From assembly GCA_051313645.2 (NCBI GenBank), contig JBNRSN020000008.1, positions 203,608,001 through 203,672,000 of the forward strand: a stretch of 64,000 bases of DNA, in the 5' to 3' direction. The position numbers were made by a program, and so were the translations under genes. The notes beneath the pieces are model-generated. The model was not told the origin of the DNA, did not search any database, and saw only the letters and a program-made list of their open reading frames with translations. Shown in pieces: positions 18,265 through 59,511 of the stretch; position 1 is the first letter of the stretch; each line of letters begins with the position of its first letter. This stretch comes from Centroscyllium fabricii (Eukaryota).

Positions 18265-18840
18265 TGGCCGGGGGGGGGGGGGGGGAGGAGGCGAGGAGGA
18301 AGATCGAGGATCGAAAGGGGGTGGGGGAAGACTGAAAGATGGGGGGTCAGAGAGAGGCGGGGGGGGGGGGCAGAGAGAGCGAGGCGGGGGGGGGGGGGGC
18401 CGAGAGAGCGAGGCGGGGGGGCCTAGAGAGCGAGGCGGGGAGGGGCCAGAGAGAGAGGCGGGGAGGGGCCAGAGAGAGAGGCGGGGAGGGGCCAGAGAGA
18501 GAGAGAGAGGCGGGGGGCCAGAGAGAGAGGCGGGGGGCCACAGAGAGAGGCGGGGGGCCACAGAGAGAGGCGGGGGGCCAGAGAGAGAGGCGGGGGGCCA
18601 GAGAGAGGGGCGGGGGGCCAGAGAGAGGGGCGGGGCGCCAGAGAGGGGGGCGGGGTGCCAGAGAGGGGGGCGGGGCGCCAGAGAGGGGGCGGGGCGCCAG
18701 AGAGGGGGGCGGGGCGCCAGAGAGAGGGGCGCGCGGCCAGAGAGAGGGGCGGGGGCCAGAGAGAGAGAGATGGGGGCCAGAGAAAGAGAGATGGGGGGGG
18801 GGGCCCAGAGAGAGAGACGGGGAGCGAGAGGGGGGACCGA
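18265..18840. repeat. G/A-rich minisatellite (~19-20 bp unit ccagagagagaggcgggggg)
   Basis: Visible tandem repeats with G-runs; they produce spurious GGGPERE / Pro-rich ORFs. Confidence 0.9.
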
Positions 18841-19730: not shown

Positions 19731-20690
19731 AAGTAAAGTAAAGTAAAGTAAAGTAAATTTTATTGTCACATGACTGAACAAAATTCATACAGTGAAATGC
19801 ATACTGCAATTCCACACGCGCTATACATCTACTAACAATAAAAACAACAAAAGACACATAGCACGCCCGGAACCCGCAAGACATCAAGCCATTCTCCGGC
19901 GCCATCATTGAGGGTCCGCTAATGCTCCAGCTCTTCAATTCGATGTTGTTAAACCTCCTCATTACTGCGATGCACTGCTGAATATAGATTTTTTGATGGT
20001 TACGGGACTACAAACCTGCATTCCATGATTGAATGATGGAGTCCATTGTCCGATCTTCGGCCCAGGAATGCCCCCAGCTGATAGAGACACCGGTCGTGGA
20101 CTGCCCTTCGGCCCGAAAGCGGGCCCAGCTCACAGAGACGTCGTCGGGGGCTGCCCTTCGGCCCGATAGCGGGCCCAGCTGATAAGAGACGTCGGGGGGC
20201 TTCCCTTCAGCCCGAGAGCGGGCCCAGCTGAGAGACGTCGTCGGGGGCTGCCCTTCGGCCCGAGAGCGGGCCCAGCTGAGAGACGTCGTCGGGGGCTGCC
20301 CTTCGGCCCGAGAGCGGGCCCAGCTGAGAGACGTCGTCGGGGGCTGCCCTTCGGCCCGAGAGCGGGCCCAGCTGAGAGACGTCGTCGGGGGCTGCCCTTC
20401 GGCCCGAGAGCGGGCCCAGCTGACAGAGACGCCGGTCGTTTAAAAAGAAACCGCCAATCGAGGCCTACCCTTCGGCCAGGTCTCCGAAACCATCAAAAAA
20501 AGAAAAACCATAACTTGAAACTTGAATTTGAATTTAAACCCAAACCATCAGCCACTCTGCTGGCTTTCATTAGTCCGATTTTTAAATTCAAAACCAAAAC
20601 ATTGATGTAAAATATAATTTCAAATTTGATTTCTAGCAGCGTGTCATCTTGATGACCGCTCCTGCCGGAGCACAGCGCCCGGATGTAGCC
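19728..20690 (-). mobile_element. Non-autonomous retroposon with (ttact)n tail and internal 48-bp array
   Basis: Tail ...gtgacaataaaat(ttact)n. A related copy at 23838-24260 shares ccgcaagac..attctccggcgccatcat. No coding capacity seen. Confidence 0.55.
20075..20437. repeat. ~48-bp GC-rich tandem repeat, ~7 copies
   Basis: Unit gctgcccttcggcccgagagcgggcccagctgagagacgtcgtcgggg. Confidence 0.9.
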
Positions 20691-21971: not shown

Positions 21972-23048
21972 GGAATAAGGAGACGACACACTCCTTGGAA
22001 TAAGGAGACGACACACTCCTTGGAATAAGGAGACGACACACTCCTTGGAATAAGGAGACGACACACTCCTTGGAATAAGGAGACGACACACTCCTTGGAA
22101 TAAGGAGACGACACACTCCTTGGAATAAGGAGACGACACACTCCTTGGAATAAGGAGACGACACACTCCTTGGAATAAGGAGACGACACACTCCTTGGAA
22201 TAAGGAGACGACACACTCCTTGGAATAAGGAGACGACACACTCCTTGGAATAAGGAGACGACACACTCCTTGGAATAAGGAGACGACACACTCCTTGGAA
22301 TAAGGAGACGATCTACCCCTTGGAATAAGGAGACGACACACTCCTTGGAATAAGGAGACGACCTACTCCTTGGAATAAGGAGACGACACACTCCTTGGAA
22401 TAAGGAGACGACCTACTCCTTGGAATAAGGAGACGACGCACTCCTTGGAATAAGGAGACGACGCACTCCTTGGAATAAGGAGACGACACACTCCTTGGAA
22501 TAAGGAGACGACACACTCCTTGGAATAAGGAGACGACCCACTCCTTGGAATAAGGAGACGACACACTCCTTGGAATAAGGAGACGACACACTCCTTGGAA
22601 TAAGGAGACGACACACTCCTTGGAATAAGGAGACGACACACCCCTTGGAATAAGGAGACGACACACTCCTTGGAATAAGGAGACGACACACTCCTTGGAA
22701 TAAGGAGACGACACACTCATTGGAATAAGGAGACGACACACTCCTTGGAATAAGGAGACGACACACTCCTTGGAATAAGGAGACGACACACTCCTTGGAA
22801 TAAGGAGACGACACACTCCTTGGAATAAGGAGACGACACACTCCTTGGAATAAGGAGACGACCTACTCCTTGGAATAAGGAGACGACACACTCCTTGGAA
22901 TAAGGAGACGACACACTCCTTGGAATAAGGAGACGACCTACCCCTTGGAATAAGGAGACGACCTACTCCTTGGAATAAGGAGACGACCTACTCCTTGGAA
23001 TAAGGAGACGACCTACTCCTTGGAATAAGGGGACGACCTACTCCTTGG
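21972..23048. repeat. 25-bp minisatellite, ~43 copies, expanded within a CR1 fragment (21880-23222)
   Basis: Unit ggaataaggagacgacacactcctt. The flanks are contiguous CR1 sequence (KCEVVHFGRRN on the left, LNG..GLISRGIEFKS on the right). Confidence 0.95.
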
Positions 23049-25630: not shown

Positions 25631-25969
25631 CAGTCAAACTATAAAACACACAATTTTTAATGCCTATGACTTTAAAACTAAAGTAAAAATGTAAGAAATA
25701 TGGGTTCTTTTCACACCTCCATCACAAGGCACCCAAGATGAGGGATACAATGGGGCTGGGGAGAAGGGAGGAACAGCCTAATTTCCCACCACAATCATGG
25801 ACAGGATATTAATACTCCAACGTGCTGCACTTTCAGAAACTGATATTAAAAATTAGTTAGACCATCACAAATAAGGAATAAAATCATCAACAGTAAGGAA
25901 GGCATGCATGCAAGGCAGCAAAACCAGAAGTGGTCACAAGATACTGCAGTACTGAAGGTTCGGTCAAGA

Positions 25970-26631
25970 TGACAGATTGAAATATTATATGAAACAGTCC
26001 TTAATCTTTCCTCATGTAGAAAGCAATTTGGGAAAGTAATAGGACAGTGTCAAACATAGTAAAAATATATCTAGCAGCCATTTCGTAGCTTAGCCTCAGA
26101 CTTAAGTGGGGAGGGGGATTGAGTAATATCTCAGGATGACCAAACTGCTATAGTTAGCAAAAAACAGGAAGACCACAAGGCCAGATGCAGGGTCTCTAAG
26201 CCTTGTGCAAAGCATTGTGCAACCGCTAAATGTGCAAAGCCTTGTGATGTGCTGAGTGCACAAGATAGGGGCAACCCAAAGGTCAAGCCACTCTTAGGTA
26301 ATCACAGATGTTCCTTCTGTCCGCATTTTTAGAATTGCTTAGGTAGCCAGTATTTCAAATGTAATGACTAATGCCTTATCGCCATGCCTCTGTATGTAAT
26401 CGAATGATTGGCTATTGATCCAAGTCTGTTTGCGGTTTTTAAGAATAAAAGCCTGGCCCTTCCTTAGATTGGCGGGCTTCTTACTCGTTGCGCTTGAGTC
26501 CCTCGACTCAGTGTATGCTTGTAGTAAGTCGCCTGAACCAGCTGGTGAATAAAAGAAGTTGACTTCAACTACTCGTGTGGTGTCTCGATCCTTGACGTAC
26601 AACTGTGGGTAGAAGAAAACCTAAACTATCA
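25970..26631 (+). repeat. 5' LTR (662 bp)
   Basis: TGACAG...CTATCA imperfect inverted termini; no difference from the 3' LTR by eye. ATTGG at 26407, TATA-like AATAAAA at 26444, polyA signal AATAAA at 26548. Confidence 0.97.
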
Positions 26632-26633
26632 AA

Positions 26634-26651
26634 TGGGGGCTCGTCCGGGAT
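26634..26651 (+). promoter_or_regulatory. Primer-binding site, tRNA-Pro
   Basis: TGGGGGCTCGTCCGGGAT, identical to the canonical MLV-type tRNA-Pro PBS, 2 nt after the LTR CA. Confidence 0.97.
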
Positions 26652-26726
26652 TCCAAAACCACAGTTCTGACCACCCGTGGTTGAAGCAGAGTTGCTCAAC
26701 GGATTGATTGAAAGGAATCGGCCACC

Positions 26727-26735
26727 AAAGTGAGT
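26727..26735 (+). promoter_or_regulatory. Probable major splice donor
   Basis: AAA|GTGAGT about 80 nt after the PBS. Confidence 0.65.
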
Positions 26736-27160
26736 ACATTTATTTAAAGTGCCACTTTGTTTTCCTGACTGTCAAAACCGATTTTTGAGTAAACTCGAGT
26801 TCACCACGAAGGGGCAGACTGTGTGACGGAATCAAAGAAAATACAGTTGTGACACCCACGAGTTTAACCTTAAATTGAAATGGGTCTTTAAGGTGATTAG
26901 AAAAGTCAGATTGGAGTGGATCTCTGACTAAAGATGGAGTATTAACGGGTCTCCAGAGAGTTAAAGTAACGGGTCTCTCAATAAAATTAGATTAATAAAT
27001 TTGGATACACTTGGATTTACAGTAATTTTAGTATTAACCCTTATTTGTCTATTAATTTGGTGTTTTGATCTATGTGAACAAAAAGGGAGTAACGTAACCT
27101 TAAAAACTGATAAGGACAAAGAAGAGGATAAAGTCCCACTAATAAACAGATACTAGAACC

Positions 27161-29416
27161 ATGGGTAATGCGGTAGATACTTGCACAGACCCGTCCAGTC
27201 CATTACAGCAGTTATGTGATAAACATCCAGATAGGATTGATAAATTAAGAAAACTTTCAGCCGGACTAACGCATAAACTAGGATTGGTAGAGTGGCCAAC
27301 AGGAGGATCCAGTAACATAACCACGGTTAAAGTAGCACAACAGAGAATATGGGAGAATGGTGGTGGAAAAGGTTGTAAGAAGTTGATTCAATTATGGTTG
27401 GATCATTGTACAGAAGATCGAGAAAAAAGCATCTTGTCTAGTTGGCAGGATAACGCTCTAAAGGCAGGAATTGAACTTAGTTACGGGGGCATAACAAAAA
27501 GTGTGGAAATATTGAAAAAGGAGGTAGCCTTTGTAAAACAACAAAAAGGTTCCAAACGGGACTTAACGGCCGAGGTAAAAGACTTACGTAAGTCGATGGT
27601 AGGCATTGGTTTAGATGACCCAGATGGCGACAGTCTTTTGGAGTGGTGTCCCCCGAATCCCTAAGCACCAACGGCGCCCGTGGCACCATTGCCACAACCT
27701 CCCCCGTATATAGCAGTCCAACCTGCAGCCCCTCAAGTACCATTAATATATCCAAGTATAGTGTCACCACCTGTCCAAGTAGTACCTCCATCTATTGTAC
27801 CTCCGCCAATACCACAGACTCCTGTTTCAACGAATACATTTGTTGAACCACCCTCCGGGCTGGCACCTCCTCCCGTGACGGGTGCACGAGGTACACGAAG
27901 AAAAATACCTCGGGGACACTCCAGTACCGGAGTGTCCAGGCCGTCTGTCTCAGGCAACCCGCCACATTATCATGACGGAGTATCAGGCGGAACTAGATCT
28001 AAAACTAGACTAAGGGGCAAAAACGGTAAACCCTCCCCCAGTAAGACGTTCCAGCAATTAGTTATTACTGCCGCTGAAGAGCCAATAGACACAGATGAAG
28101 AAGTAGATGAGGACTTAAGTGATGACTGGGAGGAAGTTGTAGAAGAAGAACCTCTCACATCTTCAGCAGAGACACAGGTCAAAGCAGTAAAATGTTTTCT
28201 GAATAGTTTTGATTCAGACGAAAACACCGACGAGGAAAGTGGCAAACAAAGGAGACCAATAGTCAAAAAGAAGAAAAGAGTAGTCAAACAGTTTCCCATG
28301 CGCATTGTTCCAAACGCATTAGTTGGCCAACCAACTGGCCCAGGCGGAGCAGTTAATTTAAACCCCACAATGCAAGTTTATGTCCCTTGGAAACCTAATG
28401 AAATGTTGGCTATCCTGGCTACTGCCCCAGACAAAGATCAGTTACCCGCCAAGTTTGTGCAGTTCCTGAGGACCGTTATTAATGTCTACAATGGTGATGC
28501 CCAGGACCTCTGGTCACTCATCCAGCAATGTCTCTCTCCCACTCAATTTGGAAGATTTCAGCTTGCCATAACCCATCCGACCTATGCCGCCTTCGCCGGT
28601 GGAAACGTTGGAGTGGGACTCCGAGTTGATACCCTTTTGACCACAGTTCAGACTGTTTTACAGAAACCAATAGACATTTCCAAAATTCTGGAAGCCAAAC
28701 AAAAGAAAGGAGAAGCAATAGAAGATTTTCTTGAAAGATTCAGGGAATTGTACTCTAACCACTCCGGAGATGCTAACTTCCTTGCGGGCAATGCATCCCC
28801 TCAATTTTGTGCCATCCTGATGACCTGTCTGTCTGCCACAGTGGCCAAAGATGTTAAAATCAACAACATTCAATGGGCAACTAATACCCCTGACGAACTA
28901 TGCAGAGTAATTAAAGCTCTGTGGAAAGATCCAGTCTTGGACAAAGATACGGCAGTAAAAGTTAAGTCAGAATACGTAGTTGCCCCAGTCCTTCCCCCGA
29001 TAGACCATAGAGGGTATCAGATGGAACCCGAATCTTGTAATCTCGGGTGGGTTTCTCACCAGGGAGAAGGTTACATGGATCATCCCAATGGACCTAGGGC
29101 AGCAGCCCATGGCCCACCGGTAGCCCCAGTTGGAGCTTGGCAACACTTACAGGATTTCCGCGGGCAACAGGGTTATCCTCCACAGGGAGGTTATTCTCAG
29201 TATCAAGGAGGACATAATCAGGGTAACCAGAGAAGTCAAACCCGCCGTAATCAGTGTTTCTCTTGTGGAGGAACAGGCCATTGGCAGCATGAATGTCTAA
29301 ATGGAGATCAGGGACAAGGAGACAGAGGAGGTAGAGGAGGAGGAAGAGGTAGACAACAAGGAAGAGGAGGAAGAGTAGGAAGGTTTCAGCAGAGAAACCC
29401 CTTTTACCAACAATGA
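27161..29416 (+). CDS. gag: Gag (MA-late-CA-NC), interrupted by one in-frame TAA at 27662-27664
   Basis: ORFs 27161..27664 and 27680..29416 share a frame. MG start, PTAP and PPPY late motifs, MHR QKKGEAIEDFLERFRELY, single CCHC knuckle CFSCGGTGHWQHEC, RGG tail. Confidence 0.92.
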
Positions 29417-32400
29417 AGTTCCATGCTCCCAGTGTCCTCCCCAACAAACACACACATCCCTGAACCCCTCCTGGCACTCACAGTTAACGGACACTCACTC
29501 CATTTTCTAGTCGATACGGGGGCAACCTTTTCCTCAGTACAAGCTAAATACAACTTACCTCTTTCAGAGCATACAGAAAGACTGGCCGGCTTTGACGGCC
29601 AGCCCAGAATTTATCCTGTCTCCAAACTCGTGTCTGTCCAGTTTAAATCGCTTTTCGTTAATCACTCGTTTGTAATTTCCTCCGCCCTTGACTGCAATCT
29701 CATGGGAAGAGACCTGATATGTGTATTGAAACTAATCCTCAATTGTAAAGAGGAAGGAGTAGAAATTACACACCCAGCCCCGAGACAGATGTATGTTACT
29801 ACTATTCCCCAATGGTGGACATTAGACTTAAGCGACGGACATCACCATGTTACCCTGGCATATGATAGATCAGGGACTAACAAAGAGCTCACGGATTTCT
29901 TCGAACCTTTTCTAGGGCAATCTTTTCCAGTACACATAAGAGCCTATGTCACGGGACCACCAGGAGAGGCAGATTTTGTCCAGATCCCACATCACTTGTG
30001 GAAACCTCAACCCCTGCATAACTTAGGTACCGCACCCCAGTTTGCTCCACACATCACCAGAATGGTCTTACAACCGTATCACGCTAAGGATTTAGGAATT
30101 ATCACAAAAAAGGCAGCTGACCAATCAGACCCTTCCATTTTCTCGGTCCAGCATGTGGGGGATGAAGGTCTTACTATACAGTATCATGCCATTGCAAAAA
30201 CAGAGATGTGTAAGTTAAACAGACATTATGGAAAGGACATTGTCGATTACGTCTGCCCCGACGCATGGGCTAGGGAAACTACTCAAGTAGGAATAGTTAC
30301 GGTTCCACCTGTCTGTATAGCGATTAAATCAAACGCTGTCCTCCCATCAATTAAGCAGTACCCTATGAAGCAGCAAGCTATCCCCTGCATAACTAATCTT
30401 GTCAGAGAACTTATAGCACAGAAGGTACTGGTTGAGTGCAAATCACAATGTAACACTCCCTTACTAGCCGTTCCAAAACCAGGTAAACCAGGAGTCTATA
30501 GACTGGTCCAAGATTTAAGGGCCATCAATGCAATTGTCAAACCTCTCCACGCACTGGTACCTAATCCTGCGCACATTTTAGCCACCATCCCTGCCCACTC
30601 GAAGGTTTTTGCCATCATTGACCTTCAGCACGCCTTTTTCTCCATCCCCCTCCACAGGGACAGTCAGTATCTCTTTGCATTTACTTTTCAGGGCCAACAG
30701 TATACGTGGACACGATTACCCCAGGGATTTGTCAACTCCCCGACTCTATTCTCTAGGTGCCTCCAACAGCAGCTTTCTGACTTACAGTTAGAACATCACT
30801 CTGCCCTGATCCAGTATGTCGATGACCTGCTTATCGCTAGTCCCGACGAGGCCAGTAATAGAGAGGACGTCATTACCGTCCTTAATCACCTCAGTCGCTT
30901 AGGATATGTCATAAACGCTCTAAAAGTCAAAGTTGCACAACAGGAAGTTAAGTTTCTCGGAGTGATTCTCTCGGCTACAGAAAGAAAACTTGAGGAGAGC
31001 AGGATCCAACCCATCTGTAACACCCCAGTTCCACAAACCGCCAAAGAAGTTAGACAGTGGATGGGCATGATTAATTATTGCAGACAATGGATCCCTAACA
31101 TTGCTACCCTCACCAAGTTATTAACCCCGTATACTAGTGAGGAAAAGCCATTTATACTTTCACCAGAGGCTACCTCTGCCTTCCGTCAGCTCAAGCAGGC
31201 CCTAGCCCAAGCTCCAGCTTTAGGCAGACCCTTATATGATAGACCCTTTCAACTCTTCTGCACCGTTATTGCAGACTGTGCTACCGCAGTTCTCACCCAG
31301 AAACACGGAGATCAAAATCGTCCAGTTGCCTATTTTTCCTCCAAATTAGACCCAGTTGCATTGGGCTATCCCTTTTGCACTCAGGTTCTGGCTGCAATTT
31401 ACAATAGTCTCCAATCAGCAGCAAACCTTACTCTCCAACAAGATATCACTGTCTATAGTTCCCACTCAGTGACAGCACTTCTCGGACAGCTTCAGACCCA
31501 GCATCTTACAGCCGCTCGTCAAAACAAGTATGAGATTTCTCTCCTTAACAACCCAAGGCTGGTATTCAAACATTGTTCCACCCTTAACCCAGCAACCTTC
31601 CTACAACAACCACCTTCCGTTAACATGGAACTATCTCATGACTGTCTCATCAGTGTAATGGAAGATACTAGCCCTCGTACAGATCTGACGGACAAACCTC
31701 TTGATTTACCTGACTTAACACTCTACACCGATGGCAGCTCATCATATGATAGCTGCGGAAACAGAATCTCAGGTTATGCAGTTGTAAACCAAGATGGGAA
31801 GACCTGCGTGTCTGGGGCCTTTCAGCACCCCGTTTCAGCCCAACAAGCGGAACTGTATGCTCTTACTCAAGCTTGTATTTTTGCTCATGACCAGTCTGTA
31901 AACATTTACACCGACTCTCGGTATGCCTTTGGAGTAGTGCATGATTTTGGACAGTTATGGAAGAATCGCGGCTTCATTGCTTCATCAGGTGCCTTGATCT
32001 CGAACCGCCAACTAGTCTCTGATCTTTTGCTCGCTATCATGTTACCCAGATCAATAGCAGTTATTAAATGTTCAGCTCATACTGCGGGGACCACCCCTGT
32101 TGATATAGGAAATAGAAATGCCGATTTAGCGGCCAAAAAGGCCTCACTCGGTAGTCAGATGGTTACATTACAAATGATGACACAAGCCAAAACCACTTCA
32201 CCGGGAATCTTTGCGTCTGATAAACCAATGCCAACCATTAAGGATGTTATTTTCTTGCAGGAGGACGCTCCTGAGTCTGTTAAGCAATTATGGACCCAAC
32301 ACTCATGTAAGAGTAACTCGGATGGACTCTGGGTTACTCCAGTTGGGCAAGCATGTATGACTGATGTATTAGCGGGATGGGTGATTGAAAGTGTTCATTT

Positions 32401-33430
32401 TCTTACCCATTGTGGCGCTCGTCAAACTACCGATCTGTTACTTAAAACCTGGTGGCACCCAAGACTTCAAGCCCTGGCGGCTACCTTCTCTAACAGGTGT
32501 CTAGTGTGCTCACAACATAACCCATCACCAGGTTCAAAATGTGCCAAAGGAAAAACCCCTCTCCCTTCAGGTCCCTTTGACACTCTCCAAATGGACTATA
32601 TAACTCTACCAAAATGTAATGGTTATCAGTATGTTCTTGTTATTGTAGATGTCTTCAGTAAATGGATAGAGGCATATCCAACTTCTGATAACAAAGCCTC
32701 AACAGTTGTAAAAGTATTACTTCGCGAAATTATCCCTCGGTATGGTATTCCTGCTCGGATCAGTTCCGACAATGGACCACACTTTATTGGGGAGATTAAC
32801 AAAGAAATGTGCAAACAGTTAGGGATTGAACAACAGCTCCATTGTGCCTATCATCCTCAAGCGGCAGGACTTGTCGAACGCATGAACCAGACCCTTAAAA
32901 CTAAGCTCGCCAAACTGGTGGAGCAAACTGGTTCAACATGGTTTAAATTGCTACCAATAGCTCTTTTTCAGATCCGTGTTACACCAGCAGGACGGCACCA
33001 ACTTTCCCCATCAGAGATTGTCTATGGTCGGCCAGTCAGAACCCCGTGGGGTGATCGACCACCTGCTACAGTCCACTTCCACCATATGACTGAGGAACTG
33101 ACTGATTATGTTTTAAATCTAACTGATGCTTTACGTTATGCACATTCACAGGTCCGATCTGCCCACGGGCCTCCAGCTACCCTCCAGTTGTCCCAAGAAA
33201 TCGTACCAGGCACATTTGTCCTTGTTAAAAACTGGACACACAAAGGTCTGGAGAAAAGATGGATTGGTCCCTACCAAGTACTCTTGACCACCCCCACAGC
33301 AGCAAAACTTGAAGGACGCAATGCTTGGGTTCACCTTCATCATTGCAAACTGATTACAAGTAATCAGAAGGGGGGGGATAAGGTCGATAAGGATAAGGTC
33401 GATAAGGTGGGGACACCTAAAGATCAATAA
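29417..33430 (+). CDS. pol: Pro-Pol: protease, 2H phosphoesterase-like domain, RT, RNase H, integrase
   Basis: In frame with gag. DTG (29513), GRDL, LPQG, YVDD (30815), YTDGS/AELYAL/YTDSRY, HHCC, D-D-E (QMDY, SDNG, VERMN), GPY. No stops. Confidence 0.97.
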   Translation, partial: SSMLPVSSPTNTHIPEPLLALTVNGHSLHFLVDTGATFSSVQAKYNLPLSEHTERLAGFDGQPRIYPVSKLVSVQFKSLFVNHSFVISSALDCNLMGRDLICVLKLILNCKEEGVEITHPAPRQMYVTTIPQWWTLDLSDGHHHVTLAYDRSGTNKELTDFFEPFLGQSFPVHIRAYVTGPPGEADFVQIPHHLWKPQPLHNLGTAPQFAPHITRMVLQPYHAKDLGIITKKAADQSDPSIFSVQHVGDEGLTIQYHAIAKTEMCKLNRHYGKDIVDYVCPDAWARETTQVGIVTVPPVCIAIKSNAVLPSIKQYPMKQQAIPCITNLVRELIAQKVLVECKSQCNTPLLAVPKPGKPGVYRLVQDLRAINAIVKPLHALVPNPAHILATIPAHSKVFAIIDLQHAFFSIPLHRDSQYLFAFTFQGQQYTWTRLPQGFVNSPTLFSRCLQQQLSDLQLEHHSALIQYVDDLLIASPDEASNREDVITVLNHLSRLGYVINALKVKVAQQEVKFLGVILSATERKLEESRIQPICNTPVPQTAKEVRQWMGMINYCRQWIPNIATLTKLLTPYTSEEKPFILSPEATSAFRQLKQALAQAPALGRPLYDRPFQLFCTVIADCATAVLTQKHGDQNRPVAYFSSKLDPVALGYPFCTQVLAAIYNSLQSAANLTLQQDITVYSSHSVTALLGQLQTQHLTAARQNKYEISLLNNPRLVFKHCSTLNPATFLQQPPSVNMELSHDCLISVMEDTSPRTDLTDKPLDLPDLTLYTDGSSSYDSCGNRISGYAVVNQDGKTCVSGAFQHPVSAQQAELYALTQACIFAHDQSVNIYTDSRYAFGVVHDFGQLWKNRGFIASSGALISNRQLVSDLLLAIMLPRSIAVIKCSAHTAGTTPVDIGNRNADLAAKKASLGSQMVTLQMMTQAKTTSPGIFASDKPMPTIKDVIFLQEDAPESVKQLWTQHSCKSNSDGLWVTPVGQACMTDVLAGWVIESVHFLTHCGARQTTDLLLKTWWHPRLQALAATFSNRCLVCSQHNPSPGSKCAKGKTPLPSGPFDTLQMDYITLPKCNGYQYVLVIVDVFSKWIEAYPTSDNKASTVVKVLLREIIPRYGIPARISSDNGPHFIGEINKEMCKQLGIEQQLHCAYHPQAAGLVERMNQTLKTKLAKLVEQTGSTWFKLLPIALFQIRVTPAGRHQLSPSEIVYGRPVRTPWGDRPPATVHFHHMTEELTDYVLNLTDALRYAHSQVRSAHGPPATLQLSQEIVPGTFVLVKNWTHKGLEKRWIGPYQVLLTTPTAAKLEGRNAWVHLHHCKLITSNQKGGDKVDKDKVDKVGTPKDQ
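29780..30240 (+). other. 2H phosphoesterase-like domain within Pol
   Basis: HVTL (29846-29857) and PHITR (30047-30061), 68 aa apart, followed by AKDLG; lies between protease and RT. Confidence 0.75.
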
Positions 33431-33447
33431 AAAGAAGATGCAATAAT

Positions 33448-33486
33448 CCTTTTGTTAGTTTTTGTATTCTTTCAGTATTCTTTCAG
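33448..33486 (+). promoter_or_regulatory. env splice acceptor(s)
   Basis: Pyrimidine tract with a tandem duplicated tattctttcag, giving AGs at 33475 and 33486, upstream of the env ATG. Confidence 0.7.
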
Positions 33487-33523
33487 ACCCTAGCAATAAC
33501 GGGAGGATCGTAAAACCGAAGAA

Positions 33524-35632
33524 ATGAGGGTATCACTCGTCCTCATCACGCTGCCATACTTACTGATGGATATTGAAGGATGGAAAGCCGTTAACGGAAA
33601 AGATGGAGTAAAAACAATCAACCGGGACTATCCGAGGAGGAACAGGAAAAAGACATTTACTTGCTCCTTGGGAGCTAAAGCGGACAAAGTCAGACACCTG
33701 TGTAAAGGAGATATGATCACCTGTGTGGATCCTTCAGATCCATTCGGAAGCTGGACTGTAACCAGAAAGGACTTTTGTACCGGTTGGTTAAAACAAACTG
33801 ATAGACAAATAACGTTAGAACTCAGAAACCAGTGGGGGTTGCCTTGCAACTACCGAAAATGTAAATTTGATTTTAATTGTAAACACAAACATACTGAGGA
33901 TGTAAAGTATAAGCAGACATTGCCAGAGGGAATGTGCTTACGGGAAGCTCAGTTACATCCAGACCCTGAAGTAGGTAGGCGAGCAGAGTTCGCCGACTCC
34001 AAGAGATTAGATCGCAAAGATAAGTCTAGGATAAAACGTAGTACAGGATCAACAGACAGGCACCCCTCCCCAGCAGACCCTAGTGGTAACCTGTTCATTA
34101 AAACTCATGATTCCATGTTTGGACCCAATTCCGGCCCGATCTGTTACAATCATGAATCAGTACTTGGTATGTTCACGGTTTCCCCCTTATGGGGGCGCAC
34201 CGAGAGAGTTGTCAAGTGCCTACATGGTCCCACCCAACTACCTAAAAGATTGGTCCGTCCCTATCACCCCTTTACAGCTCCACCTGCCAACTGCCTACCC
34301 CTCCCAAGGGACAACACACATTCTCAAAAAGTCTGCGTTAAAAGGACGTCAGCAGCAATACTGGCCCTTCCCTGCCACTTTTCCATCAACACTGACAACC
34401 GAATGTACGAACGATGTTTTAATAACAGCGGATGGGGATGTACCGTCGTCCAGGTCACCCGGAACCTCACCTGCTTACAAAAAACCTGTGAGAAACGACA
34501 ATGTCATGAACAATCCGAGGGAATGTCCTGCCCGTGTGTAAGTTCATCGTGTATCCCCCTCAGCCAGGGTCCACAGCTCATGTGCGGACAGGCAAACGGG
34601 ACCCATATACAGGTCAACGAGAACTATGCCTTCCCCATCACGCCCGATGGTGACTGGATTACCGAGGGATGGAAGGACTGGGCAACCGGGGGAGATACCA
34701 CAAACACATGGCGCACTTGTTCCCACCTGTCTACAGATTACGGTTACTTCTTCTTTTATAACGGAGTGGCCACCAACATCTTAGAGCCACCATACCCCAG
34801 ACAGGTAGCAGTCGGCACCCTAGTGCCCACCACGGTACCTTGTCCTACTAAATGGGGAAAACAAAGATACAGATTAGTTAAACGCACGGTCACTAAGGAA
34901 TATTGTGGCCGATGGAGTAACCCAAAGGCATTTGGAGGAGTTGGACACTCAATAGGATGGGGAATATTAAGCTCTATATCATTAGGAGGCACAGCAGGAG
35001 GCATAGCGGCCGATAACCGGAATTACCTAGTGTGTGGACTTGCTATCTTGGGCAATGATACTAGAGGGGCACTGGAAGAAGTAACTTTAGGATTGCATGA
35101 CTTACGATTGTTTACTCAGCAAAATAGGTACGCCTTGGACTACATTCTCGCCAAGGAAGGGGGAGTGTGCGCAATAGTACAAGGAAAGTGCATCATGGGA
35201 GTTCCAGATCGAACCAAGAACCTCACTCAGTTCATTAACAATATTAGGAATTTTGTCGAAGGCCTGGGAGAGGGCCCCAGTGGAGGAAACTTGGAAATAG
35301 AAGGATGGCAGGACTGGTTTACCAATATAGCCATTTACCTTGGAATAACTGTGCTTTGCATTTTTGTCGGAATGGCAGTCCTTAAATGTGTTCTTGCCAG
35401 AATGATGCGTTCTGTAGGAAGCATTGGAGATACAGTTGAAGGATTACAAAGCACCCAAAAGATGATGCTTCAGCGGATGATAACCGACAAAGGAGACGAC
35501 CCGGAAGAGCAAATCGAAGATGGAGACGCATGGCTCATTGAACAGAAGAACAAAGAAACCATTGAGAACGAATTTATGAGGCTCAACCGAAGCAATCTAC
35601 CGGAGAATGACGGACTGGGACTTTCGGAGTAA
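33524..35632 (+). CDS. env: Env, 702 aa, intact
   Basis: Signal peptide; RIKR (aa 169-172) and RLVKR (to aa 454); Gly-rich fusion peptide; ISD QNRYALDYILAKEGGVC; CX6C; TM helix FTNIAIYLGITVLCIFVGMAVL. Confidence 0.95.
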   Translation: MRVSLVLITLPYLLMDIEGWKAVNGKDGVKTINRDYPRRNRKKTFTCSLGAKADKVRHLCKGDMITCVDPSDPFGSWTVTRKDFCTGWLKQTDRQITLELRNQWGLPCNYRKCKFDFNCKHKHTEDVKYKQTLPEGMCLREAQLHPDPEVGRRAEFADSKRLDRKDKSRIKRSTGSTDRHPSPADPSGNLFIKTHDSMFGPNSGPICYNHESVLGMFTVSPLWGRTERVVKCLHGPTQLPKRLVRPYHPFTAPPANCLPLPRDNTHSQKVCVKRTSAAILALPCHFSINTDNRMYERCFNNSGWGCTVVQVTRNLTCLQKTCEKRQCHEQSEGMSCPCVSSSCIPLSQGPQLMCGQANGTHIQVNENYAFPITPDGDWITEGWKDWATGGDTTNTWRTCSHLSTDYGYFFFYNGVATNILEPPYPRQVAVGTLVPTTVPCPTKWGKQRYRLVKRTVTKEYCGRWSNPKAFGGVGHSIGWGILSSISLGGTAGGIAADNRNYLVCGLAILGNDTRGALEEVTLGLHDLRLFTQQNRYALDYILAKEGGVCAIVQGKCIMGVPDRTKNLTQFINNIRNFVEGLGEGPSGGNLEIEGWQDWFTNIAIYLGITVLCIFVGMAVLKCVLARMMRSVGSIGDTVEGLQSTQKMMLQRMITDKGDDPEEQIEDGDAWLIEQKNKETIENEFMRLNRSNLPENDGLGLSE

Positions 35633-35900
35633 AAATGGACTTAAGAACTTTGAATGTTGTGCTGGTATCTTCTTCATGGACACAAGAGTTAATTGTTGCA
35701 TTGTTCGATTTGATTATTATTCTTTTTATTTTATGTTGTGCTTTTCACTTGGTTGAAAATCATATGTGCCCAGCTAACTAAGATAGCAATATCTGCTCAG
35801 TTAATCATCAGATTTTTAGCAGACGAGAACAGGGATAAACCAATAAGCCATTCCTCATGAGCCCTTGTCATAAGGTAGAATTAATTGTCATAGAAATGAC

Positions 35901-35912
35901 AAAAGGGGGGGA
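35901..35912 (+). promoter_or_regulatory. Polypurine tract
   Basis: aaaaggggggga immediately before the 3' LTR TG. Confidence 0.95.
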
Positions 35913-36574
35913 TGACAGATTGAAATATTATATGAAACAGTCCTTAATCTTTCCTCATGTAGAAAGCAATTTGGGAAAGTAATAGGACAGTGTCAAACAT
36001 AGTAAAAATATATCTAGCAGCCATTTCGTAGCTTAGCCTCAGACTTAAGTGGGGAGGGGGATTGAGTAATATCTCAGGATGACCAAACTGCTATAGTTAG
36101 CAAAAAACAGGAAGACCACAAGGCCAGATGCAGGGTCTCTAAGCCTTGTGCAAAGCATTGTGCAACCGCTAAATGTGCAAAGCCTTGTGATGTGCTGAGT
36201 GCACAAGATAGGGGCAACCCAAAGGTCAAGCCACTCTTAGGTAATCACAGATGTTCCTTCTGTCCGCATTTTTAGAATTGCTTAGGTAGCCAGTATTTCA
36301 AATGTAATGACTAATGCCTTATCGCCATGCCTCTGTATGTAATCGAATGATTGGCTATTGATCCAAGTCTGTTTGCGGTTTTTAAGAATAAAAGCCTGGC
36401 CCTTCCTTAGATTGGCGGGCTTCTTACTCGTTGCGCTTGAGTCCCTCGACTCAGTGTATGCTTGTAGTAAGTCGCCTGAACCAGCTGGTGAATAAAAGAA
36501 GTTGACTTCAACTACTCGTGTGGTGTCTCGATCCTTGACGTACAACTGTGGGTAGAAGAAAACCTAAACTATCA
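35913..36574 (+). repeat. 3' LTR (662 bp)
   Basis: Direct repeat of 25970-26631. Confidence 0.97.
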
Positions 36575-36980
36575 AAGTCAGGAAGGTTCAGTGGCAAGAA
36601 CGAGAAAAGCAATTTGGCTCGTATAGCCTGCCCCGATTAGGTTCACACACAGGATCTGCTCATACCATGTATCTCCCCTCCCGGCTTATCTAGTTTTGAG
36701 AAAAGGTCATCGACCTGAAACATCAACTCTGCTCCTCTCTCCACCGATGCTGCCTGGCCTGCTGAGTTTCTCCAGCGTTTGCAGTTGTTTTTTCTGCTCG
36801 TACCATGTTAGACTGCCCGACAGCACTGGCTCTGGTGCCAGTGACAAATGGACGGATCGAGAGACTGTCATTTTGTTTTGCTCACCAGCAAGCTGAGCTC
36901 TCATCCCATTTGTGCAGGCCACTACTACAGTTTTTGCATTGCTAGAACATCTAGGCAGTCCCCCTGACATAAGGAATGAC

Positions 36981-37377
36981 GGGGCGGCACGGTGGCATAG
37001 TGGTTAGCACTGTTGCCTCACAGTACTGGAGACCCGGGTTCAAATCCGGCCTCGGGTACTATCTGTGTGGAGTTTGCACATTCTCCCCGTGTCTGCGTGG
37101 GTTTCCTCCGGGTGCTCCGGTTTCCTCCCACAGTTGTGCGGGTTAGGTTGATTGGCCATGATAAATTGACCCTTAGTGTTAGGGGGATTGAATATGTGGG
37201 GTTACGGGGATAGGGTGGAATATGTGTCGGTGTAGGCTCGATAGGGATCGAGGGATATGGGGAGAGGGCAGGGGCGGGGTGCTGGGTTTGGATGATCAGC
37301 CATGATCTCATTGAATGGCGGAGCAGGCTCGAAGGGCCGAATGGCCTACTCCTGCTCCTATCTTCTATGTTTCTATG
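36981..37377 (+). mobile_element. HE1-like V-SINE, full length
   Basis: tRNA head, V-domain (ctgtgtggagtttgcacattctccccgtgtctgcgtgggtttcctccgggtgctccgg) and CR1/HER1 tail. Confidence 0.9.
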
Positions 37378-38180: not shown

Positions 38181-40183
38181 TAGTGGGATAGTGGGTGCTG
38201 AGGGAAGATTGCCAGCCGTTTGTAGATTTCTGGCTGCAGATCAACCTTTAGAAAGAACCAACGAGTGCTATTGCACAAGAGCGAGTAAGTAGCTCAGTGT
38301 TGCTCCTGGTACTCTAAATACCATCCTGCAAAATAAATAAGATGCATTCCAGAATACGAAGAGCCTTTAAACATTGCAGAACTGTTTCCCATTGTCAAAA
38401 AATGTATCTCCCTACCTTGAACAAAGCTTATATCCTCCCAATATCCAACAAATCACAAAAAGAGTCTCTCATACCCAAGTTAATTAACCTGCTCCTTAAT
38501 TGCATTTAGCACAAGGCTTGGAGTTGCTGATTACAACTTTGTTCTAATGGAGTGGACAGCAGCCAGAGTTGACAAAAGGACTGGAGATGTGTGGAAGGCA
38601 TTTTATAAAAGTAGCTTAAGTAGCATGTACACAGATGCATAAATGTCATTCCATGTACAGTGGCTGTCACAGCAGAATACAATCAGGTGCCACTTGTGTT
38701 ATATGTGGCTTGCTTCAAGTATCCTTTGAAGTGTCACTGACCTTGAATAACATGACAAAACCTTCATAACAAAACATAGGTTTTTGTTTTCACATTGTAA
38801 ATTGCTTGCAATGTTAAATCAACCACAGACAGCATGGAATGTAAATAATAATCTATCCTCTGCATTCTTGCACTGCTTTAACCAGTAATTAAACTTAAAT
38901 CATTGCCAGCATTATAATTACAGCATTAATAGCAACCGGTTCATTCACCGCTGCACGATTACTGAATAGAAGCTGGGAGAATTAGTAGCAATTATAACTC
39001 AAGCTTTCTCTTTAATGCATGGCTCTCCAAGGGGGAATTCAGAGAATAAGCAAGCAGTATACAAGACAAGCTATGGAGAACCCATGCACCAGTCCAAGGC
39101 TGTTAATTGCCTGAAGAGCTTTTACCTACTTATGTTTTCTCACCCATTTTCCTAAAGGGAGTGACTCTCAGCCACCTGTTCCTACCCTTACCAGGTGTCC
39201 ACCAGCAGTTTTAGTAAAGACTCTAGACAGTGATCAAGAATGGGAACCCTAGTCAATTCTCTCCTTCCTAAACTGGGGTGCTGTGGCCAACTGTTACAAC
39301 CTTACTAGCTCAGCACAGAACTTGGTCCCTTCCTGTTCAGTATGGCTCAGCTACTCACTGGATAAATGACAAGTCATTGGGCAGCCCCATGTACATTTTC
39401 ATCTTCACCTGGTTATTCTGGTGCCTCATTGTGCAGGAAACTTAAAGTTTGAATGGCTTGCTGTGACTGCTGCACCACTGCATTTTTTGAAAGGGGGAGG
39501 TAGGGGTAAAGACTAGTGCCAAGGCTCTGATGGAATCAGTAATATTCATTCAGTTACAAATGGCAGCGATTCAATTTGGTCTCGACAGTGGGGATCATGA
39601 TAGGGTGGAGGACATTGTAACAAAGTAATTTTATTTCCTTCCAAATAAATTAGATACAAAACCACAGTTCAAGAAGCTTCTTCCCATTGTTGCCTCTGCA
39701 CTCTGTCAGCCTTTCCTTCTGATGTTAACATTGCCCCTCAATTGTCTTTTCCCCTTTCAATCCCCTCCTCCCGCCCCACCCCCCCTTGCTTCGTGCAATT
39801 ACTACCATTGACATGTTCCTTGGCTTTTTTAATGGGGACTTTTTACTGTTGATGAAGTGAGGAATGTCAATGATAGAGCAGTCTAGCTCTTTTCCACTCT
39901 GCTGATCAGGATTAGGCAGAAAGTAGTCCACAGGCAGAATTTAACGTTTTCCATTTTGACCCAACCATTTGCCTTTGCCCCAACTGCGACTGTGGATTTT
40001 ACAATCAAGTCCGAAAGAATGTGTGACAGGGAAAATCAAAAACAGACTCTGGTGCAATATGGAGTGCACTTCTGAAGGTTGGGGTTAAAATGCATTTTAG
40101 ACCACAGCAGACAATCTTCATTGTGCAATATCTGACCTAGAAATATTGAACAGTAATATGCTGGGCTTAAACAGTGAAAATGA

Positions 40184-40416
40184 GTGCGGGTTAGGTTGAT
40201 TGGCCATGATAAATTGACCCTTAGTGTTAGGGGGATTGAATATGTGAGGTTACGGGGATAGGGTGGGATATGTGTCGGTGCAGGCTCGATAGGGATATGG
40301 GGAGAAGGCAGGGACAGGGTGCTGGGTCTGGATGATCAGCCATGATCTCATTGAATGGCGGAGCAGGCTCGAGGGGCCGAATGGCCTACTCCTGCTCCTA
40401 TCTTCTATGTTTCTAT
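40184..40416 (+). mobile_element. HE1-like SINE, 5'-truncated
   Basis: Matches 37137-37377. Confidence 0.85.
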
Positions 40417-43899: not shown

Positions 43900-46868
43900 A
43901 TGTGTGTGTTTGGGAGGCCCAGAAGATAACGAACCCAGAAGAGGGGTAAGAGAGCAGGGACCCTCATCAGGCTGAAGAGGGCCCCTCTCAATCCCTCTCT
44001 GCCCAGCATCTACCTGGCCAATGTCAGGTCTCTAGTGAGTAAAATTGGAAGAAATCAAACTTGGCCTCTCCACACAGCCCAGGATCAAGGAATGCTGCGC
44101 CATGATCTTCACGGAGACCTGTCTGAACAACGGCATTCGCCGACTCCGGTAAGAGCAAGGGAGGCGGCCTGTGCATCTACACGAACAACGCCTGGGGTAC
44201 GAACGCGGAACTGATCGAAAGTTCCTCCTCCGCCGATCTGGAATTCCTCACGGTAAGGTGCAGACATTTTACCTGCCGCGGGAATTCACGGCCGTCAACC
44301 TCACTGTGGTCTACATCCCTCCACGTGCTAATGCCAAACTGGCACTAAAGGATCTCCACAGGGCCATCAGCGAGCAGCAGACCGCGCATCCAGAGGGAGC
44401 CTTTTTCGTGGCGGGGACTTCAACCACGCTAACCTCAAATCCATACTCCCGAAATTTCACCAGAATGTCTCTTGCCCCACGAGGGGCGAGAACACGCTGG
44501 ACCAGGTCTACACCAACATCGCAGAGGCTTACAAAGCCATCCCCTGCCCCCACCTCGGGAAGTCCGACCACCTTTCACTGTTCCTTGCCCCAGCATACAA
44601 ACCACTCATCAAAAGGGTGTAAGCTCCAGCCAAAACAGTCAGGGTATGGCCAGAAGGGGCAGTCTCAGAGCTACAAGACTGCTTCGGACGCACTGAATGG
44701 AGCATGTTCGCTCACACGGACATCGAGGAATACGCATCCACAGTGCTATTTTACATCAACAGCTGTGTCGAGGTGGTCACTACCCAAAAAACCATCAAGA
44801 CATTCCCCAACCAGAAACCCTGGATGAACGGGGAGGTCCGCTTGCTGCTGAAGGCACGTGACGCAGCTTTCAAATCTGGTGACGTGGCGGCTTACAGCAC
44901 AGCCAGGGCCAACCTAAAGAGGGGAATCAGGTCTGCCAAACGCAACCAGACACTGAAGATAGAGGAACACTTTCACAACAACTCGGACCCTCGGCGTATG
45001 TGGCAAGGCATACAGTCCATCACGGACTACAAGTGCAAGAACACCAGCCCCCCACCCTGCGATGCTTCCCTACCGGAGGAACTTAACAACTTCTACGCTC
45101 GCTTCGACAGGGGCAATAGGGAGCCAGCCACCAAAGTCTTGCAATCTCCGGAAGACCAGCCACTAACACTGTCCTCCTCCGACGTTCGAGGTGCTCTACG
45201 TGGAGTGAACGCACGGAAGGCCGCGGGTCCTGACGGCATCCCCGGCCGGGCACTCAAAGACTGTGCTGACCAACTGGCTGAGGTCTTCACGGACATCTTC
45301 AACCTGTCACTGGCGAAGGCAGCTGTCCCTACCTGCTTCAAGACCGCCACCATCATCCCTGTGCCCAAGAAAACGGCCGTGACGTGCCTGAACGACGACC
45401 GCCCTGTCGCACTCACACCCATAATCCTGAAGTGTTTCGAGCAGCTGGTCCTGGCCCACATCAAAGCCAGCGTCCCCGCCGCCCTGGACCAATACCAGTT
45501 CGCCTATCGAGGAAACAGATCAACGGAAGATGCAATCACTACGGCTCTTCACTTTGCACTAACCCACCTGGATAGCAAAGATACATATATCAGAATGCTG
45601 TTTATTGACTACAGCTCAGCATTCAACACCATCGTCCCCAGCAAGCTGTCTACCAAACTCCTCTCCCTCGGCCTGAACACCTCCCTCTGCAACTGGACCC
45701 TGGACTTCCTAACCAACAGACCACAGGCTGTGAAGTTAGGCAACCTCACCTCCAAAATAGTGGAAGCGGACAGTCTGGGAGCTTTTAAGAGGATGATAGA
45801 TAGATACATGGAGGGGAATGAAGAGTAGGGGGGATGCAAATAATCAGAGACGGGCGAAGCGCGGCACTACATTGAGGGCCTAGGGCCTGTACAGTGCTGT
45901 ACAATCTATGTTCTACCTCCTCCCCCCCTTACCCTGAACACGGGGGCCCCACAAGGCTGTGTGCTGAGCCCCCTCCTCTACTCCCTCTTCACCCACGACT
46001 GTGCGGCTGTCCACGGCTCCAACACGATCATCAAGTTCGCGGACGACACCACAGTGGTTGGCCAGATCACCAACAACAATGAGTCAGCCTACAGGGGTGA
46101 GATTCAGCGCCTTGTGGGATGGTGTGCCGATCACAACCTGGCACTGAACACCAAGAAAACCAAGGAGATCATAGTGGACCTCCGGAAGACTAAAAGCAGA
46201 AGACACACCCCCATCTTCATCCAAGGGGCTGAGGTGGAAAGGGTGTCCAGCTTCAAGTTCCTCGGGGTCCACATCTTGGAAGACCTCTCCTGGTCACTAA
46301 ACACCTCCTCTCTGATTAAGAAGGCCCAACAGCGCCTGTACTTCCTAAGGAAGCTGGAAAAAGCCAAGCTGTCATCCGGCATCCTCACCAACTTCTACCG
46401 CTGCACAATCGAAAGCATACTGACAAACTGCATCACAGTCTGGTATGGGAACTGCACCATCTCGGACCGGATGGCCCTGCAGCGGGTAGTCAAAACTGCC
46501 CAACGAATCACCGGCACCCAGCTACCGTCAATCGAACGCACCTACCTCAAACTTTGCCTACGGAGGTCTCTGAACATTATTAAAGACCCCACACACCCCA
46601 GCCACAGTCTGTTTGCCCCCCTGCCCTCCGGGAGACGCTACAGATCAATTCGCACCCGCACGACCAGATTCAAGAACAGCTTCTTCCCCAGGGCTGTCAG
46701 TCTCCTGAACTCTAACAAAAAACTCCAGTATCTGCACACCTGAAAATGTACTTTATTGTATGAAATTGTATGTAACTTATTTGCACTACTCTCGGGAGCG
46801 GCGAGTCTTCGTTTTGTTGTATTGTACTTGTACTCTGCAATGACAATAAAACTAGAATTGAATTGAAA
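43900..46868 (+). mobile_element. Rex1/Babar LINE, near-complete ORF (EN+RT), disrupted
   Basis: EN remnants (VYIPP, GKSDH), [48 protein letters not shown]; (gaatt)n tail. Confidence 0.9.
45754..45914 (+). mobile_element. Short CR1-like 3' tail inserted in the Rex1 RT
   Basis: 6-bp TSD acctcc (45748-53, 45915-20); tail gtgctgtacaatctatgttct. Confidence 0.8.
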
Positions 46869-50200: not shown

Positions 50201-50670
50201 CTTTCAGGGAACATAAAAACTGACTGTAAAAGCTTCTATAGCTATGTGAAGAGAAAAAGATTGGTGAAGTCAAGCATAGATCCCTTGCAGTCAGAATCAG
50301 GGGAATTTATAATGGGGAACAAAGAAATGGCAGACCAATTAAATATATACTTTGGTTCTGTCTTCACAAAGGAGGACACAAATAATCTCCCAGAGATGTC
50401 GGGGAACATGGGATCTAATGAGAGGGAGGAACTAAATGAAATCAGTATTTGTCAGGAAATGGTGTCGGGGAAATTGACGGGATTGAAAGTCGATAAATCC
50501 CCAGGGCCTGATAATCTACATCCTAGGGTACTTAAGGAAGTGGCCCCAGAAATAAGATGCATTGCTGGTCATCTTCCAAAATTCGATAGATTCTGGAATA
50601 GTTCCCATGGATTGGACGGTAGCTAATGTTACCACATTATTCAAAAAAGGTGGTAGAGAGAAAACCAGGT
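47285..50670 (+). mobile_element. CR1 LINE 5' two-thirds (5'UTR, ORF1 with SGNH esterase-like domain, ORF2 endonuclease), decayed
   Basis: ORF1 CSSCAMW zinc motif, VIGDSIVRG, PGARVKD, VVVHIG. ORF2 ETWL, RKDR..RGGGVAL, GDFN, LDWV, KSPGPD. Confidence 0.9.
48856..49252 (-). mobile_element. HE1-like V-SINE inserted at the start of CR1 ORF2
   Basis: Reverse complement of 36981-37377. Confidence 0.9.
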
Positions 50671-59000: not shown

Positions 59001-59511
59001 AGCGGTGTATGTTTGCGCTGCTCCACTATTAGCCTCGCAAAAATGGGAGCTCACCATCCATCTCCCAATGAATTTCATAAAATTGTTGGATTTGCGCGTA
59101 AATACGAATTAAACTTGCTGCAGAAAGTTAGGGCTGCTATTTCATGATATAAGGACCCTTTTAATGACAAGATTTATGTTTCTGCAAGGTCACTCAACCT
59201 CTCTCTTTCCAATCTTTCTTTCCCTCTCTTTATTTATCTTTCTGTATCTAATTTGACACTGATTCATCTTATGTCCTTCTCTGTCATTCGCTGTTTCTTT
59301 CTCTATCCTTAAATTTCATTGGTTAAGGAGATAGACGATTGGCCCCGTTGTTCACCAAGTTCCCAGATGCCCATTGACCGCGCTATCAATTCACACTTTA
59401 AAAAAATGAAGGATAAGGGAAAGAATCCAACTCACAGCACATGGTGTGAGATGCCCCATTCCAGCAAATTATGTACAGGTACCAATATTAACTTTAAACT
59501 ATCAAAGTAAC

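Follow-up and report, generated by a model that had tools for sequence, protein, structure and literature searches.

A class I provirus with identical long terminal repeats, an interrupted gag and a filovirus-like envelope in Centroscyllium fabricii

Can a provirus whose two ends are identical still produce virus, how long ago was it inserted, and from what kind of retrovirus did it come? These questions are raised by positions 25970–36574 of a 64,000-nt stretch of Centroscyllium fabricii DNA (GenBank assembly GCA_051313645.2, contig JBNRSN020000008.1, forward-strand positions 203,608,001 to 203,672,000; hereafter the window, whose numbering is used throughout). An earlier note, made from the nucleotide sequence, described the locus as a very recent, near-intact and possibly still infectious retrovirus of cartilaginous fish. 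The locus is a real provirus, with two 662-bp long terminal repeats (LTRs), a primer binding site (PBS) of the tRNA-Pro type, a polypurine tract (PPT), and open pol and env genes. Translation of the frame 27161–33430, however, meets three stops: a TAA at gag codon 168, a TGA at codon 752, and the end of pol. Taken together, the evidence indicates that the provirus is probably a young, gag-defective, epsilon-like class I endogenous retrovirus (ERV).

Structure, gag and age of the provirus

Comparison of the window with itself returned one perfect repeat of 666 bases. The 5′ LTR (25970–26631, + strand) and the 3′ LTR (35913–36574, +) both have TG...CA ends and align without a mismatch over their 662 positions, confirming an identity previously judged by eye. 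The 5′ LTR contains ATTGG at 26407, an AATAAA at 26444 in what may be a TATA-like position, and a second AATAAA at 26548 that is a putative poly(A) signal; its U3 region carries 16-nt repeats. The PBS (26634–26651, +) starts 2 nt past the LTR, and its 18-mer equals the tRNA-Pro PBS given for a murine leukaemia virus (MLV) in a passage of PMC1769482. The PPT (35901–35912, +) adjoins the 3′ LTR. The pattern GT[AG]AGT occurs once downstream of the PBS, as a candidate splice donor with its GT at 26730 (26728–26735, +), and tandem candidate acceptors for env lie at 33467–33486 (+); downstream of these pyrimidine-rich sites, at 33475 and 33486, the first ATG met is that of env. With the proviso that the splice signals are consensus matches, the PBS, PPT and splice sites described earlier are all present, and pol (1337 codons) and env (702 amino acids) are fully open as claimed.

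The provirus is bordered by AAGA on the left (25966–25969) and AAGT on the right (36575–36578). A canonical integrase product is expected to leave a perfect short target site duplication (TSD); here three of four bases agree if the provirus ends in TG...CA, and four of five if it is taken to be two bases longer at each end. The identity of the LTRs reaches exactly 2 nt outward on either side, and the discordant base flanking the 5′ LTR is the one that precedes the 3′ LTR at the same position. The imperfect junction fits any of three possible histories: a viral terminal overhang retained in repair, integration of unprocessed ends, or sequence copied from a 3′ LTR through gene conversion or in polishing. 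The last had been raised in the earlier note. The window holds no second provirus copy or solo LTR, nor does any repeat cross the point of insertion in a way that would reveal the unoccupied site. Rfam returned no families and ARAGORN no tRNAs, and a bacterial promoter scan, irrelevant to this element, was empty.

The 5′ part of gag (27161–27664, +) has a Met-Gly start and 167 putatively matrix-like codons, and is ended by the TAA at 27662–27664. The 3′ part (27665–29416, +) continues in the same frame with PTAP and PPPY motifs, a capsid-like region matching a skate ERV Gag at 43% over 269 amino acids, and one CCHC zinc knuckle, and ends in UGAAGU. The TGA (29414) lies after the knuckle and before the protease, and pol continues in the gag frame. 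Given this position, and since UGAAGU is also the junction hexamer of a frog ERV (that of SSSV, the swim bladder sarcoma virus of salmon, being UGAAGA, according to passages of PMC13517186), the TGA is taken to be the natural gag-pol junction. No MLV-type structure was seen past this UGA (z +2.2; +1.05 to −0.48). Judged from the sequence, the TAA at 27662 reads as a lesion breaking gag. It falls between the Met-Gly 167-residue piece and the PTAP and PPPY motifs, before capsid; the next in-frame ATG is codon 380, beyond both late-domain motifs; and the same source describes UAA as a consistently weak readthrough signal. Because capsid, nucleocapsid and the whole of pol lie beyond the TAA, the copy as assembled is non-autonomous. 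A replication-competent provirus has gag, pol and env all open, and this one does not, so the suggestion that it might still be infectious finds no support for the copy as assembled. The description ‘near-intact’ holds for the LTRs, pol and env, but not for gag, whose in-frame TAA had gone unmentioned.

Several observations weigh against a broken gag of this kind. The TAA could be a base-calling error, and the 90 nt past it fold slightly better than shuffled sequences (z −2.3 and −2.5), although among 210 windows taken along the provirus 8 score as low. The 167-residue piece gave no Pfam match and no significant match to the N-termini of four relatives. When Gag was read with X through the stop, no relatives were found in the protein database, and comparison with the PDB returned nucleocapsid-level matches and chance matches only. 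We infer the 167-residue piece to be continuous with Gag, and to be its matrix. The possibility that it represents a separate accessory gene, after the model of orf C of walleye dermal sarcoma virus (WDSV), was considered and rejected: it lies in the gag frame, has a Met-Gly start, and is followed by no ATG until codon 380.

The age of the insertion was estimated in two ways. With no differences in 1324 LTR bases, the 95% bound on the LTR age is 10.3 million years (My) at 2.2e-10 per year (the value adopted in PMC4422223), or at most 3.2 million generations at the 7e-10 per generation stated in part of PMC10587355. When the coding region is combined with the LTRs, the median age becomes 3.0–4.4 My if the stop post-dates the insertion and 1.2–1.8 My if it does not, medians that rest on assumed indel ratios. 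No frameshift is present in 8370 coding nt, and with 395 stop-equivalent sites a single stop corresponds to about a few My of neutral decay. The near-intact interior thus argues independently against great age. The identity of the LTRs is in itself ordinary; a passage of PMC8672886 gives identical LTRs for 248 of 890 zebrafish ERVs. ‘Young’ is justified (0 to ∼10 My, most likely a few My or less), and to that extent the earlier dating as recently active stands; ‘very recent’, however, asks too much of identical LTRs, which are common in fish ERVs. The interesting part of this provirus is its envelope, not the identity of its LTRs.

Three other histories deserve consideration. The copy might be a fully competent and very recent provirus, with the TAA arising from misassembly or serving as a further site of programmed readthrough. 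The perfect LTR match, the open pol and env, the absence of frameshifts and the mild RNA structure past the TAA would suit such a history, and if the stop were an error or pre-dated insertion, the most likely age would be zero. However, UAA is a consistently weak readthrough codon, the score of that structure recurs in the 8 of 210 windows mentioned above, two serial readthroughs would yield little capsid and almost no Pol, and one stop is roughly what a few My of neutral decay would bring over 395 sites; full competence is therefore improbable. An older insertion might also have had its LTRs homogenised, whether through gene conversion or through a collapse of LTR copies in assembly or polishing. 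Copying from a 3′ LTR would leave identity running 2 nt past the LTR on both sides, and would make the base that spoils the 4-bp TSD the one found before the 3′ LTR; a random flank substitution alongside no change in 1324 LTR bases is, by comparison, an unlikely event. Yet an insertion 30 My old should, at 2.2e-10 per year, have gathered about 2.6 stops and 3–5 frameshifts (hand arithmetic, with assumed indel ratios of 0.05–0.1), against the one and none seen, and a viral terminal dinucleotide kept in integration repair would explain the same base. Little credence is thus given to an old insertion with homogenised LTRs. Domestication, with the host selecting env (as a fusogen or receptor blocker) and pol while gag decays, would explain an open env beside a broken gag, and co-opted gamma-type fish env genes do exist (percomORF; passages of bioRxiv 2021.11.23.469661 and PMC11575397). 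The LTRs are nevertheless identical, pol is open too, and no named orthologue was found, only one 43% relative among 3756 candidates, making a domesticated locus very improbable.

The history preferred here is that of a young germ-line copy, made non-autonomous by one gag nonsense codon, whose parent was a cartilaginous-fish retrovirus of a simple, epsilon-like class I type. To judge from its signals, the parent virus would have been primed by tRNA-Pro, would have produced Gag-Pol by UGA readthrough and Env from a spliced RNA, and its Pol would have carried a CNPase-type 2H enzyme into the particle. From the genomic RNA of the present copy only the 167-residue matrix-like piece would be expected; production of Env could continue nonetheless, and a helper could still package the RNA.

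Class of Pol and its 2H domain

Pol (29417–33430, +, in the gag frame) begins with an aspartic protease carrying a DTG motif (29459–29740, +; Pfam RVP, E 2.8e-07), followed by a CNPase-like 2H phosphoesterase domain with HxT motifs at Pol His144 and His212 (29789–30241, +), a reverse transcriptase (RT) with YVDD, a connection domain and RNase H (30470–32143, +), and an integrase composed of HHCC, catalytic core and an MLV-type C-terminal domain (32381–33352, +). A 15-bp tandem duplication that keeps the frame is present in the final pol codons (33376–33407). The placing of gag, pro and pol in a single frame that a readthrough stop interrupts, the MLV-type RT, RNase H and integrase C-terminus, and the single zinc knuckle are those of class I (gamma/epsilon-related) elements. 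A search with Pol residues 100–560 found 198 matches among 3759 candidates; in the best 120, which were listed, the top six were from skates and sharks (Leucoraja, Scyliorhinus, Heptranchias and Amblyraja). An RT tree was built from the window RT and 60 named matches picked from the 120 (unnamed and many redundant named rows were dropped); it was midpoint-rooted, has open deep forks, and contains no rows for WDSV, walleye epidermal hyperplasia virus (WEHV), SSSV or zebrafish endogenous retrovirus (ZFERV). The window RT fell within a seven-row clade with six chondrichthyan ERVs (support 100/99), outside of which a sawshark match was placed. The chondrichthyan affinity proposed earlier is thus borne out at the level of the virus.

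The provirus is not a member of the genus Epsilonretrovirus. Accessory reading frames outside gag-pol and env, given as a feature of the genus in parts of bioRxiv 2021.11.23.469661 and PMC13517186, are lacking: the longest leader frame has 63 codons and the longest frame between env and the end of the element 69. Its Env has an immunosuppressive domain (ISD) and a CX6C motif, where a passage of PMC9967133 describes Epsilonretrovirus Envs without gamma-type hallmarks. The 2H domain between protease and RT is shared with the genus.

This domain makes the protease–RT spacing ∼120–130 residues longer than in the tetrapod matches. Among the 120 matches listed, 71 of which hold both protease and RT, the long spacer was present in 17 of the 19 named fish rows, 7 of the 18 unnamed rows, and none of the 34 named tetrapod rows (for one Scomber row the short spacer was scored by hand). 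The first catalytic His is kept in 25 of 26 aligned relatives and the second in 22. A model of the insert was made from 27 sequences (pLDDT 71, pTM 0.64) and compared with 48,161 chains; CNPase came first (Z 12.3, root-mean-square deviation 3.3, 142 residues aligned), with the next family at Z 6.4. In a second comparison, CNPase crystal structures and RICH scored Z 11.4–13.0, one nuclear magnetic resonance model 8.3, and entry 6u05, which we take to be the cyclic-phosphodiesterase part of a fungal tRNA ligase, 11.0. Phosphodiesterases acting on immune messengers scored Z ≤6.5 (rotavirus VP3, Acb1) and 5.1 (mouse hepatitis virus ns2, penguinpox enzymes). Among viral models, the polyproteins of WEHV-1 and WDSV ranked first and third. 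The two Hx[T/S] motifs, together with a modelled 2H fold nearest to CNPase, point to the CNPase subgroup.

Against this assignment stand the lack of the second catalytic His in 4 of the 26 fish ERV relatives, a residue after the second HxT that differs in class from that of all 26 (it is common to the closest representative), the absence of any Pfam family at E ≤10 for the insert alone, and an Atlas recognition value below its threshold. 2H catalysis may be dispensable in some fish ERV lineages. Pfam gave one weak match (2_5_RNA_ligase2, E 0.16) for the 27 alignment members, and the insert, compared with 1.84 billion representatives, found 18 matches, only a skate one of them named, with no bridge to a named cellular enzyme.

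The reaction catalysed by CNPase is the opening of 2′,3′-cyclic phosphates. A shared fold alone shows no function, and on the evidence of the model any role assigned to the viral domain is conditional. It is tentatively proposed that it would open 2′,3′-cyclic-phosphate RNA ends on the tRNA primer or the genome, leaving a 3′-OH that RT could extend; such RNA-end repair for priming is favoured because the fold sides with cyclic-phosphate-opening enzymes. Destruction of nucleotide immune messengers would be a less likely task, and a non-catalytic or structural role a somewhat less likely one still. The 2H domain of fish retroviruses is previously known, not new: 2H domains in WDSV are listed in part of PMC9503650, and CNPase in teleost ERVs in part of PMC4977317. 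Literature searches found no paper giving its substrate, and ‘retrovir’ is absent from the main text of a 2025 survey of viral 2H enzymes. A compact 2H domain with both motifs offers a ready assay subject.

The envelope and its likeness to filovirus GP2

The env gene (33524–35632, +) encodes a signal peptide, a Cys-rich surface subunit (SU), a furin motif at residues 169–172, and a dibasic site before residue 455, at which the transmembrane subunit (TM; 34886–35632, +) probably starts. TM has an ISD, a membrane span near residues 602–620, and a long tail. Cys461 and Cys504 bracket an internal hydrophobic, Gly-rich segment, an N-glycan site is present at 511 in heptad repeat 1 (HR1), and a CX6C at 549–556 lacks a third Cys. 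Env departs from the canonical gamma type, which has CXXC in SU and an ISD followed by CX6CC: no CXXC was matched in SU, and the ISD is followed by CX6C only. At the sequence level, Cys461, Cys504 and N511 agree with the TM of avian gamma-type Envs and filovirus GP2; Cys504 and N511 align with GP2 ungapped, and Cys461 lies outside the aligned stretch. The CX6CC with covalent SU–TM link of the avian gamma type is missing, and a covalent link through the usual third cysteine is probably absent. These features suggest that Env is a class I fusogen of the avian-gamma/filovirus type, whose internal fusion loop would be closed by a disulfide.

When Env was compared with the PDB, the first 39 of 57 matches were chains of the GP/GP2 type (best E 1.2e-12), with syncytin-2 (1e-05), MLV (0.059) and avian sarcoma leukosis virus (ASLV; 0.089) appearing later. 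A 74-residue Ebola core scored 30.9 bits, against 14.1 for a 95-residue ASLV piece. Over residues 496–574, 33 of 79 positions are identical to filovirus GP2 in an ungapped alignment (counted from the match line), compared with 25 for a turtle, 26 for a snake, 25 for a pigeon and 15 for an echidna ERV Env, none of which has a Cys opposite Cys504. One Env relative was found among 3756 candidates with lengths of 386–1229 only. It matches at 43% over 68% of the length, aligning only from residue 190 onward, shares 39 of the 79 positions, keeps 20 of 22 Cys including the loop pair, and likewise lacks CX6CC. No Env of the named Pol relatives was found among these candidates. The Atlas features of SU were nearest to the TLV_coat and Avian_gp85 clusters (0.91–0.92).

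The closeness to GP2 has to be set against the nature of the comparison: Env was matched only to PDB chains, among which the retroviral TM fragments of known structure are short, and to four tetrapod ERV Envs, and the result is a ranking of matches and not a tree including filoviruses. The same order could arise from slow evolution or sparse sampling, and similarity is not descent.

Env has a single canonical furin motif, at residues 169–172 (34028–34039), far upstream of TM, and may be cut twice, freeing an N-terminal Cys-rich piece. A 168-codon stop-free frame overlaps env on the same strand (34035–34541), with no evidence that it is a gene.

A passage of PMC3758190 states that a Cys-flanked fusion peptide had been seen in birds only. 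Lizard alpha-like Envs are known (in part of bioRxiv 2021.11.05.467493), which counts against the novelty of the present Env. Sections of bioRxiv 2021.11.23.469661 report gamma-type Envs in six cartilaginous fish, a CXnC subtype in anamniotes, and epsilon-like Pols with gamma-type Envs, and describe its new Envs as showing no avian-type similarity at the TM N-terminus; its S1 Fig lists the anamniote Envs that have a Cys-flanked fusion peptide, and this Env type may be among them. GP2 is regarded as a gamma-type homologue in passages of PMC9967133, PMC11575397 and bioRxiv 2023.10.07.561363, and the word ‘shark’ does not occur in the last two. Literature searches turned up no publication describing a GP2-like Env from a shark. 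It is a doubtful but consequential idea that an Env lineage of cartilaginous-fish retroviruses, entering shark or ray germ lines in geologically recent time, is the closest retroviral relative of GP2, nearer than avian leukosis virus (ALV). If true, birds would give way to early marine vertebrates as the probable origin of the fusion protein of filoviruses. With a shark-type ERV that combines a Cys-flanked TM with 33 of 79 GP2 identities, this question of origin becomes testable by a tree.

Surrounding sequence and closest known systems

The surrounding transposable elements had been called heavily decayed. This agrees with the absence from the rest of the window of any frame longer than 401 amino acids, but not with copies resembling short interspersed elements (SINEs) that are up to 94% alike, nor with open RT frames in long interspersed elements (LINEs). 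A LINE at 44153–46743 has open frames of 401 and 299 amino acids with split RT matches and an apparent interruption near 45750–45900, and a broken LINE at 47836–50626 retains an endonuclease domain (49231–49866). The SINE-like copies (36982–37372, 48854–49252, 40171–40416 and 59510–59748; 84–94% alike), one of which adjoins the provirus, presumably resemble elasmobranch HE1/V-SINE. Other features are a near-perfect palindrome at 11097–11293 (96-nt arms, 97% complementary, 5-nt spacer), a G-rich tandem array with 20-, 40- and 60-bp periods (18341–18797), a 48-bp GC-rich array of 6.9 copies (20093–20427), a 25-bp minisatellite of 43 copies at 96% with, by eye, a short internal inverted repeat per unit (21972–23048), and an element at 61719–62517 resembling a miniature inverted-repeat transposable element, whose 74-nt terminal inverted repeats are 92% alike, which holds a third, partial copy in its interior, and in which CpGs are numerous.

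The systems closest to the provirus are the chondrichthyan class I ERV gene models (Leucoraja, Scyliorhinus, Heptranchias and Amblyraja), which share its RT clade (100/99) and 46–65% identity; the 2H insert of the skate ERV copies has the same short form as here. CmiERV II and III (Han 2015) are placed beside it by description, not sequence. According to parts of that paper, the LTRs of complete CmiERVs, unlike those found here, are 2.4–3.3% diverged, and complete cartilaginous-fish ERVs date to >50 My, against ≤∼10 My for the present provirus with its open pol and env.

By description, SSSV, ZFERV and a Rhinella marina ERV also have an in-frame UGA at the gag-pol junction, the hexamer here being that of the frog ERV; the source passages do not state a CX6C or Cys-flanked loop for them. 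By analogy, the provirus may have worked like simple fish retroviruses of the SSSV/ZFERV type. Anamniote epsilon-like ERVs are described as similarly joining a gamma-type Env to an epsilon-like Pol, with no accessory genes. The Epsilonretrovirus members WDSV and WEHV-1 are alike in readthrough expression and in the 2H domain of Pol, but the provirus differs in lacking accessory frames, in its gamma-type Env with ISD, in using UGA and not UAG, and in its tRNA-Pro PBS, that of WDSV being tRNA-His. Vertebrate CNPase and RICH catalytic domains resemble the viral 2H domain in fold (Z 11.4–13.0) and in having two HxT motifs, whereas the viral domain is ∼14% identical to them, shorter, and set inside a polyprotein.

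For Env, the nearest systems are ALV/ASLV Env and filovirus GP2, with which it shares two Cys that enclose an internal segment past the cleavage site, the HR1 glycan site, an ISD, the lack of CXXC, and an SU nearest to TLV_coat and Avian_gp85. In contrast to both, the provirus and its one Env relative lack the third Cys of CX6CC, and this Env has an extra furin motif at residues 169–172 and accompanies a class I Pol in an ERV of fish type.

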